Assembly (NCBI RefSeq): GCF_009931435.1
Contig: NZ_CP043414.1
Reading direction: 5' to 3' (one strand)
DNA length: 64,000 bases
From: Escherichia coli
Lineage (GTDB): Bacteria > Pseudomonadota > Gammaproteobacteria > Enterobacterales > Enterobacteriaceae
Of this stretch, positions 50,805-51,453 are shown in pieces. Every line of letters starts with the position of its first letter. The stretch's first letter is position 1. The notes below the pieces were generated by a model. That model was given only the letters and a program-made list of their open reading frames with translations. It searched no databases and was not told the origin of the DNA. Both the position numbers and the translations under genes were made by a program.

Positions 50805-50855
50805 TCGTATCTACAATGTAGATTGATATATACTGTATCTACATATGATAGCGGT
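50805..50855 (+). promoter_or_regulatory. mazEF promoter/operator region with palindromes (ATCTACAATGTAGAT and TATCTACATATGATA)
   Basis: Perfect 15-bp palindrome 50809-50823 plus related repeat just upstream of mazE RBS. Confidence 0.4.
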
Positions 50856-50869
50856 TTGAGGAAAGGGTT

Positions 50870-51118
50870 ATGATCCACAGTAGCGTAAAGCGTTGGGGAA
50901 ATTCACCGGCGGTGCGGATCCCGGCTACGTTAATGCAGGCGCTCAATCTGAATATTGATGATGAAGTGAAGATTGACCTGGTGGATGGCAAATTAATTAT
51001 TGAGCCAGTGCGTAAAGAGCCCGTATTTACGCTTGCTGAACTGGTCAACGACATCACGCCGGAAAACCTCCACGAGAATATCGACTGGGGGGAGCCGAAA
51101 GATAAGGAAGTCTGGTAA
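50870..51118 (+). CDS. mazE: Antitoxin MazE
   Basis: [27 protein letters not shown]..; 82 aa; overlaps mazF start. Confidence 0.9.
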
Positions 51119-51453
51119 TGGTAAGCCGATACGTACCCGATACGGGCGATCTGATTTGGGTTGATTTTGACCCGACAAAAGGTAGCGAGCAAGCCGGACA
51201 TCGTCCGGCTGTTGTCCTGAGTCCGTTCATGTACAACAACAAAACAGGTATGTGTCTGTGTGTTCCTTGTACAACGCAATCAAAAGGATATCCGTTCGAA
51301 GTTGTTTTATCCGGTCAGGAACGTGATGGTGTAGCGTTAGCTGATCAGGTAAAAAGTATCGCCTGGCGGGCAAGAGGAGCAACGAAGAAAGGAACGGTTG
51401 CCCCAGAGGAATTACAACTCATTAAAGCCAAAATTAACGTGCTGATTGGCTAG
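51118..51453 (+). CDS. mazF: Endoribonuclease toxin MazF
   Basis: [36 protein letters not shown]-type sequence; 111 aa. Confidence 0.9.
   Translation: MVSRYVPDTGDLIWVDFDPTKGSEQAGHRPAVVLSPFMYNNKTGMCLCVPCTTQSKGYPFEVVLSGQERDGVALADQVKSIAWRARGATKKGTVAPEELQLIKAKINVLIG

Follow-up and report, generated by a model that had tools for sequence, protein, structure and literature searches.

The window analysed here, a 64,000-nt stretch of the Escherichia coli chromosome, almost certainly carries an intact chromosomal mazEF (chpA) type II toxin-antitoxin module, which forms a 698-bp cassette between relA and mazG. No chromosomal toxin-antitoxin module was described before mazEF, and the literature already covers its genes, structures, operator, promoters, antisense RNA and presence/absence polymorphism. 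Our check confirms the annotation of the window and carries little weight as a discovery, with one mildly new by-product, namely the wide sharing of a TATCNAC operator word among distant MazE-MazF modules.

The gene order in the window is barA, rlmD, relA, mazE, mazF, mazG and pyrG, and the four genes from relA to mazG are all on the + strand. relA (GTP pyrophosphokinase) occupies 48558-50792 as a 744-aa ORF with the stop TAG at 50790-50792, is annotated as such by RefSeq on identical DNA, and encodes the Pfam domains HD_4, RelA_SpoT, TGS and ACT. After a 77-nt spacer it is followed by the antitoxin gene mazE (50870-51118, 82 aa, stop TAA at 51116-51118), and a Shine-Dalgarno-like GAGG on the + strand (50859-50862) can be read from the sequence 7 nt 5' of the mazE ATG. 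The toxin gene mazF (51118-51453, 111 aa, ATG at 51118-51120) has a Shine-Dalgarno-like AAGGAAG 9 nt upstream of its start, and a 71-nt spacer separates it from mazG (51525-52316), annotated as a nucleoside triphosphate pyrophosphohydrolase, whose 263-aa ORF matches PF03819 with 134 bits. The module thus sits between the relA stop (50792) and the mazG start (51525), as in a relA-mazEFG locus, and it has the layout of a type II toxin-antitoxin operon: two small co-oriented genes, antitoxin first, with a one-base overlap. In this overlap the mazE TAA and the mazF ATG share one A (TAATG, 51116-51120), which probably couples mazF translation to mazE translation. An earlier note on this DNA had claimed the relA-mazEF order and the overlap with the mazF ATG at 51118; the order is confirmed by ORFs, Pfam and RefSeq annotation, the overlap is present exactly as described, and a search of mazE and mazF for a frameshift or premature stop found none, both ORFs being full length and uninterrupted.

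The identity of the two proteins is equally clear. MazE is identical at all 82 residues to PDB 1MVF chain D and 1UB4 chain C, and MazF at 110 of 111 to PDB 3NFC, 5CK9 and 1UB4 chain A, an identity to solved structures that gives MazF the CcdB/MazF fold. MazE combines an N-terminal AbrB/SpoVT-type DNA-binding domain with a disordered C-terminal tail that binds MazF. It scores 52.9 bits against Pfam PF04014 (cut-off 24.7) and 196.2 bits against the NCBIfam equivalog NF007312 (cut-off 113), and MazF scores 85 bits against PF02452 (PemK_toxin; cut-off 23.1) and 226.4 bits against the equivalog NF007386 (cut-off 120) over its full length, 1-111. R29 and T52 of MazF are needed for activity. Both are present in the translation, as is E24, the residue changed in the inactive E24A control of PMC5888573. 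No family in PADLOC-DB v2 matched MazE, MazF or MazG at E <= 0.001, so the module is not filed as a catalogued defence system, a null result that is compatible with the reported P1 exclusion phenotype.

The module is polymorphic within the species. A 901-nt query across the locus found matches in 5425 of 5426 complete E. coli genomes, in every case chromosomal and annotated with relA, mazE, mazF and mazG; 4415 of the 5425 (81%) covered the full query and hence have the module, and about 1010 genomes (19%) covered less than 80% of it. All eight low-coverage genomes among the 40 matches listed retain the flanks only, 264 bp apart, and in two mazEF-less genomes relA is followed by mazG after 95 nt. 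When the window is aligned with these two genomes, homology stops right after the relA stop and restarts at CACCTGACAG (51491), 34 nt before the mazG ATG. This sets the exact limits of the cassette at 50793-51490 (+ strand), 698 bp against 61 nt in the empty relA-mazG site of about one fifth of E. coli genomes. Both the presence/absence polymorphism and relA-mazG as an intact operon without the module have been published (PMC7167474). The 61-nt segment of the empty site has a U-rich tail and folds into a very stable hairpin (-33.2 kcal/mol, z = -6.0); the window is without this hairpin, which looks like a relA terminator or attenuator. In the mazEF-less E. coli RM14516 (L002, 1594-1688), the relA-mazG spacer has a 12-bp G+C-rich hairpin followed by GAUAUCUUUU.

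Relatives of the module were sought by a MazF scan of one genome per species, and the best 80 loci, with MazF 51-77% identical, were compared. A MazE homologue (28-71% identical) lies directly 5' of mazF in 80 of the 80. No Escherichia record is among these best 80, which we read as meaning that the E. coli representative in the species scan is probably a mazEF-less strain. The closest relative among the 80 loci, that of Pantoea agglomerans (MazF 77% identical), has a DeoR-type regulator and a dehydrogenase as its neighbours, with no relA nearby. Conjugative IncFII/MOBF plasmids of Rahnella and Brenneria have mazEF homologues between traT and traD (L086, 1256-1833; L087, 1256-1833), with MazF 72% identical and the same one-base mazE/mazF overlap. 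Plasmid records hold no copy above 80% identity, bar one mislabelled 4.8-Mb chromosome.

What the module does for the cell (stress arrest, phage exclusion, or nothing) is disputed in the field. One alternative that concerns its role, and not its mechanism, is that it is a selfish, horizontally acquired cassette, addictive or neutral, and unlinked to the stringent response despite its relA neighbour. We rate this as a serious possibility, a little short of an even chance. It would agree with the roughly 19% of complete genomes in which relA is followed by mazG with no module, with the fact that the cassette brings its own promoter and operator, and with the unrelated contexts of its closest relatives (MazF 72-77%), the traT-traD interval of IncFII/MOBF plasmids among them, and a review argues likewise (PMC7167474). 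However, the module is kept intact in 81% of genomes with mostly synonymous divergence, and links to ppGpp, Fis, MazG and phage P1 exclusion have been published (PMC7167474, PMC4803016), although these are contested.

Comparison with K-12 MG1655 bears on whether the module of the window could still be present but functionally decayed, a relic in which a change in MazF or beside the operator disables the toxin or its regulation. The alignment is gap-free from relA to the mazF stop, with one extra base 3' of that stop in the window, and the relA-mazEF-mazG DNA is 98% identical. Nine coding SNPs separate the two strains, eight of them synonymous, as expected under purifying selection: mazE has one synonymous SNP and a protein 100% identical to that of K-12, and mazF has seven synonymous SNPs plus M9T (codon 9, ATG in K-12, ACG in the window), leaving MazF 110/111 identical. 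The window has two ACA triplets in mazE and eight in mazF, whereas K-12 has nine in mazF, the loss of one being due to a synonymous change at codon 93; the K-12 counts (two in mazE, nine in mazF) agree with PMC5888573. The relA-mazE spacer differs at a single position, 50802 (A in the window, T in K-12). M9T, the one non-synonymous change in MazF, and the spacer SNP, which falls in a Fis-like sequence, are what speaks for decay, but the ORFs are full length, the operator is base-for-base identical to that of K-12, and E24, R29 and T52 are intact. Moreover, at least 1000 contigs encode exactly this M9T MazF protein, which makes it an allele common in nature rather than a lesion; it is probably neutral. 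Neither M9T, nor the lost ACA triplet, nor the SNP at 50802 is known to have an effect. Decay is therefore highly unlikely, and the intact module remains the preferred reading.

We then turn to the promoter region. ATCTACAATGTAGAT at 50809-50823 reads ATCTACA-A-TGTAGAT, that is, 7-nt inverted arms around a central A. The earlier note had called it a perfect 15-bp palindrome in the promoter, and its sequence and position stand, but with an odd length it is a 7+1+7 inverted repeat and not a true palindrome, and the picture of a single promoter palindrome is too small, since the operator consists of three sites. Across a gap of 13 nt, ATGTAGAT (50816-50823) finds its complement in a third arm, ATCTACAT (50837-50844). 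Direct copies of GTATCTACA stand at 50807 and at 50835, and the palindrome ATATAT (50826-50831) lies between these repeats. A lone 7/1/7 element is not rarer than chance, as the 64-kb window has six perfect ones against 4.5 +/- 2.0 in dinucleotide-preserving shuffles. The three-arm layout occurs once in the window and somewhere in 37 of 300 random 64-kb sequences (12%), and the chance of finding it in the 77-nt spacer is 0.147 x 77/64000, or about 2e-4.

This layout is that of the published mazEF operator, known as 'cab' or the alternating palindrome, in which three sites for MazE dimers overlap the promoters P2 and P3. The published 50-nt cab oligonucleotide (Zorzini et al. 2015) is identical to 50804-50853, save for the last base of the oligonucleotide. 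Site c (50807-50825; an exact match to the published oligonucleotide GTATCTACAATGTAGATTG) has 50809-50823 as its dyad; site a (50823-50836; TTGATATATACTGT), an exact match to the published oligonucleotide, includes the ATATAT and served for the structural model of MazE on DNA (PMC4333400); and site b (50828-50846; ATATACTGTATCTACATAT), again an exact match, holds the third arm. By ITC, MazE(1-50) binds c with a KD of 0.6 µM, the tightest of the single sites, a with 5.6 µM and b with 2.1 µM (PMC4333400). The palindrome is thus a real MazE binding site, site c of the c-a-b operator. The window itself contributes the dyad symmetry 5' of the antitoxin gene that an autoregulatory operator has, and the binding comes from the literature.

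The comparison across loci carries the reality of the operator beyond K-12, through the recurrence of the motif, its enrichment and its symmetric compensatory changes. Of the 80 loci, drawn from many phyla, 63 have TATCNAC/GTNGATA in the 100 nt before mazE, where the motif is 45 times as dense as in the other 439 kb of these loci. The Pantoea agglomerans upstream region aligns gap-free to the E. coli operator as GTGTATACAATGTATATTG, GCTAGC in place of ATATAT, and TGTATCTACAT, with the same 13-nt arm spacing, and its dyad has changed from C:G to A:T on both arms. Among 31 dyads of the form NNN-ACA-N-TGT-NNN, one symmetric position is T:A in 12 and A:T in 7, and another is C:G in 14 and A:T in 7; such switching of symmetric pairs is the pattern expected of a site read by a protein dimer. 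On the Rahnella and Brenneria plasmids the element upstream of mazEF is GTATCAACAAAGTTGACAC, a TATCNAC-type dyad. As the same motif stands upstream of mazE in loci without relA, conjugative plasmids included, the sequences indicate that it is a part of the module rather than of relA, and the palindrome gains significance only through its place in a three-site operator carried along with mazEF.

The TATCNAC word seems to accompany this MazEF subfamily in Proteobacteria, Nitrospira and Actinomycetes, on chromosomes and on conjugative plasmids. It is conceivable, and we suggest it only tentatively, that the subfamily shares one MazE code, in which TATCNAC half-sites flank a single central base as a dyad, recur at a distance of about 11 or 28 nt, or do both. 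If MazE proteins only 30-70% identical did read the same DNA word, non-cognate MazE could cross-repress each other's operons, and when a plasmid mazEF enters the cell, either it or the resident copy could be silenced by the other.

The palindrome might instead act in RNA, as a hairpin that ends the relA transcript, either a terminator or a processing site. The element begins 17 nt after the relA stop, and mazEF-less strains have the strong hairpin with its U-rich tail at that place, but the 77-nt spacer of the window is no more stably folded than shuffled sequence (-14.2 kcal/mol, z = -0.39), since 62 of 200 shuffles do at least as well. The 7/1/7 repeat is rich in A+T, leaves a loop of a single nucleotide and lacks a U tract, and a scan of 50650-51650 found no terminator-like site on the + strand. 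The occurrence of the motif upstream of mazE in loci without relA, on conjugative plasmids as well, also argues against an RNA hairpin, as does the measured binding of MazE to operator DNA (PMC4333400), and we consider this reading very improbable, somewhat more so than decay. An RNA-structure reading was likewise rejected for each of the relA-mazE and mazF-mazG spacers (z = -0.39 and -0.46, respectively). That the palindrome arose by chance in A+T-rich intergenic DNA, with the real operator elsewhere, is scarcely credible, for although perfect 7/1/7 repeats are about as frequent in shuffles and the three-arm layout turns up in some random 64-kb sequences, the placement in the 77-nt spacer, the 45-fold enrichment over 80 loci, the symmetric co-variation, the identity with K-12 and the direct binding data (PMC4333400) all stand against it.

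The promoters of the MazE-bound operator are less easily read from the DNA. P2 and P3 are 13 nt apart, and P2 is about tenfold stronger (PMC4333400, PMC5888573, PMC4803016). A consensus sigma-70 scan of 50650-51650 found neither of them, and its two weak + strand matches (50845-50874; 50973-51000) did not exceed the number seen in shuffles. Visual inspection offers TATACT (50829-50834) and TTGATA-15 nt-TATGAT (50823-50849) as plausible candidate hexamers. A Fis activation site has been described upstream of the alternating palindrome (PMC4803016). Our strict Fis consensus search found nothing near the operator, and a pattern search gave just one putative site immediately 5' of it, GGCCGAAATTAGCTC (50792-50806), a loose 15-mer of the form G-N13-C whose core is rich in A/T. 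The spacer SNP at 50802 falls inside this 15-mer, and may affect the reported Fis activation.

The antisense RNA aMEF (ameF, b4844 in K-12), whose function is described in PMC8749433, projects to about 50759-51158 on the - strand when its K-12 RefSeq coordinates (2911051-2911450) are carried over by the gap-free alignment. It would cover the 5' end of mazF, all of mazE, the operator and the 3' end of relA. The 75 bp upstream of its projected start (51159-51233, - strand) contain three synonymous SNPs relative to K-12 (51195, 51207 and 51225). The aMEF promoter has been published as non-canonical and poorly conserved (PMC8749433), and given these three SNPs the antisense output in the window strain may differ from that in K-12.

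By analogy with K-12, whose mechanism is covered by PMC4333400, PMC4803016, PMC5888573, PMC8749433 and PMC7167474, MazE dimers would use their AbrB-type N-terminal domains to occupy c, a and b and thereby repress P2 and P3, and MazF dimers on the MazE tails would raise operator affinity and repression until MazF is in large excess. MazE would be unstable and shorter-lived than MazF, as a substrate of ClpAP or Lon (PMC5888573, PMC8749433), such that a halt in expression would free MazF. Free MazF would then cut single-stranded RNA at ACA, its own mRNA included, and bring about translation arrest; ribosome-independent cleavage at ACA is documented for K-12 MazF (PMC5888573). Fis would activate the promoter and aMEF would tune the levels of the mazE and mazEF transcripts. 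mazG has been reported to be co-transcribed with mazEF (PMC4803016).

The earlier note also held that this is the only toxin-antitoxin module in the window, which is supported in that, across the whole window, the annotation of near-identical genomes shows mazE and mazF as the sole antitoxin and toxin, although a small type I toxin could escape annotation. An Rfam search over the window returned no type I antitoxin RNA and only features expected at these loci: CsrB (37709-38068, +), GcvB (14409-14614, -) and three tandem tRNA genes (9792-10085, -), which are tRNA-Met in the annotation of the closest genome.

Two other regions of the window vary among close relatives. Genome 2020CK-00188 is identical over the 901-nt query and differs at window 21738-28566 and in the CRISPR array, and in the fuc region genome R32_14_1F is nearer to the window than 2020CK-00188. 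At 21738-28566 a cluster of about 6.8 kb replaces fucP and the fucA-fucP spacer. It comprises an ABC sugar-transporter ATPase (22181-23695), a permease (23699-24682), a binding protein (24633-25706), an FGGY-family kinase (25712-27340) and a LacI-type regulator (27405-28403), and only 381 of the 5425 complete E. coli genomes match it over its whole extent. The queE-ygcE interval contains a type I-E CRISPR array (60396-61218) with 14 copies of GAGTTCCCCGCGCCAGCGGGGATAAACCG and 32-nt spacers. Its spacer content differs from that of the otherwise closest genome, in the corresponding stretch of which no cas genes are annotated.

Among known systems, the chromosomal paralogue chpBIK (ChpS/ChpB) of E. 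coli has in common with mazEF the two folds and the order of antitoxin then toxin, but it lies at another chromosomal locus, and its models match the proteins of the window only weakly (ChpB 55 bits against a cut-off of 129; ChpS 35 against 101). The plasmid systems pemIK and parD (kis-kid) of R100 and R1 are likewise autoregulated two-gene operons with a toxin of the PemK/MazF fold and an AbrB-type antitoxin. Kid (1M1F) is a distant PDB match to the MazF of the window (E = 7.8e-9), and the window copy, unlike these plasmid systems, is chromosomal. The mazEF of K-12 (chpAI/chpAK, b2783/b2782) has the same gene order, gene lengths, one-base overlap, 77-nt spacer and operator as the window, and the earlier view of the locus as known biology is therefore borne out, the module matching textbook K-12 mazEF together with its published operator.
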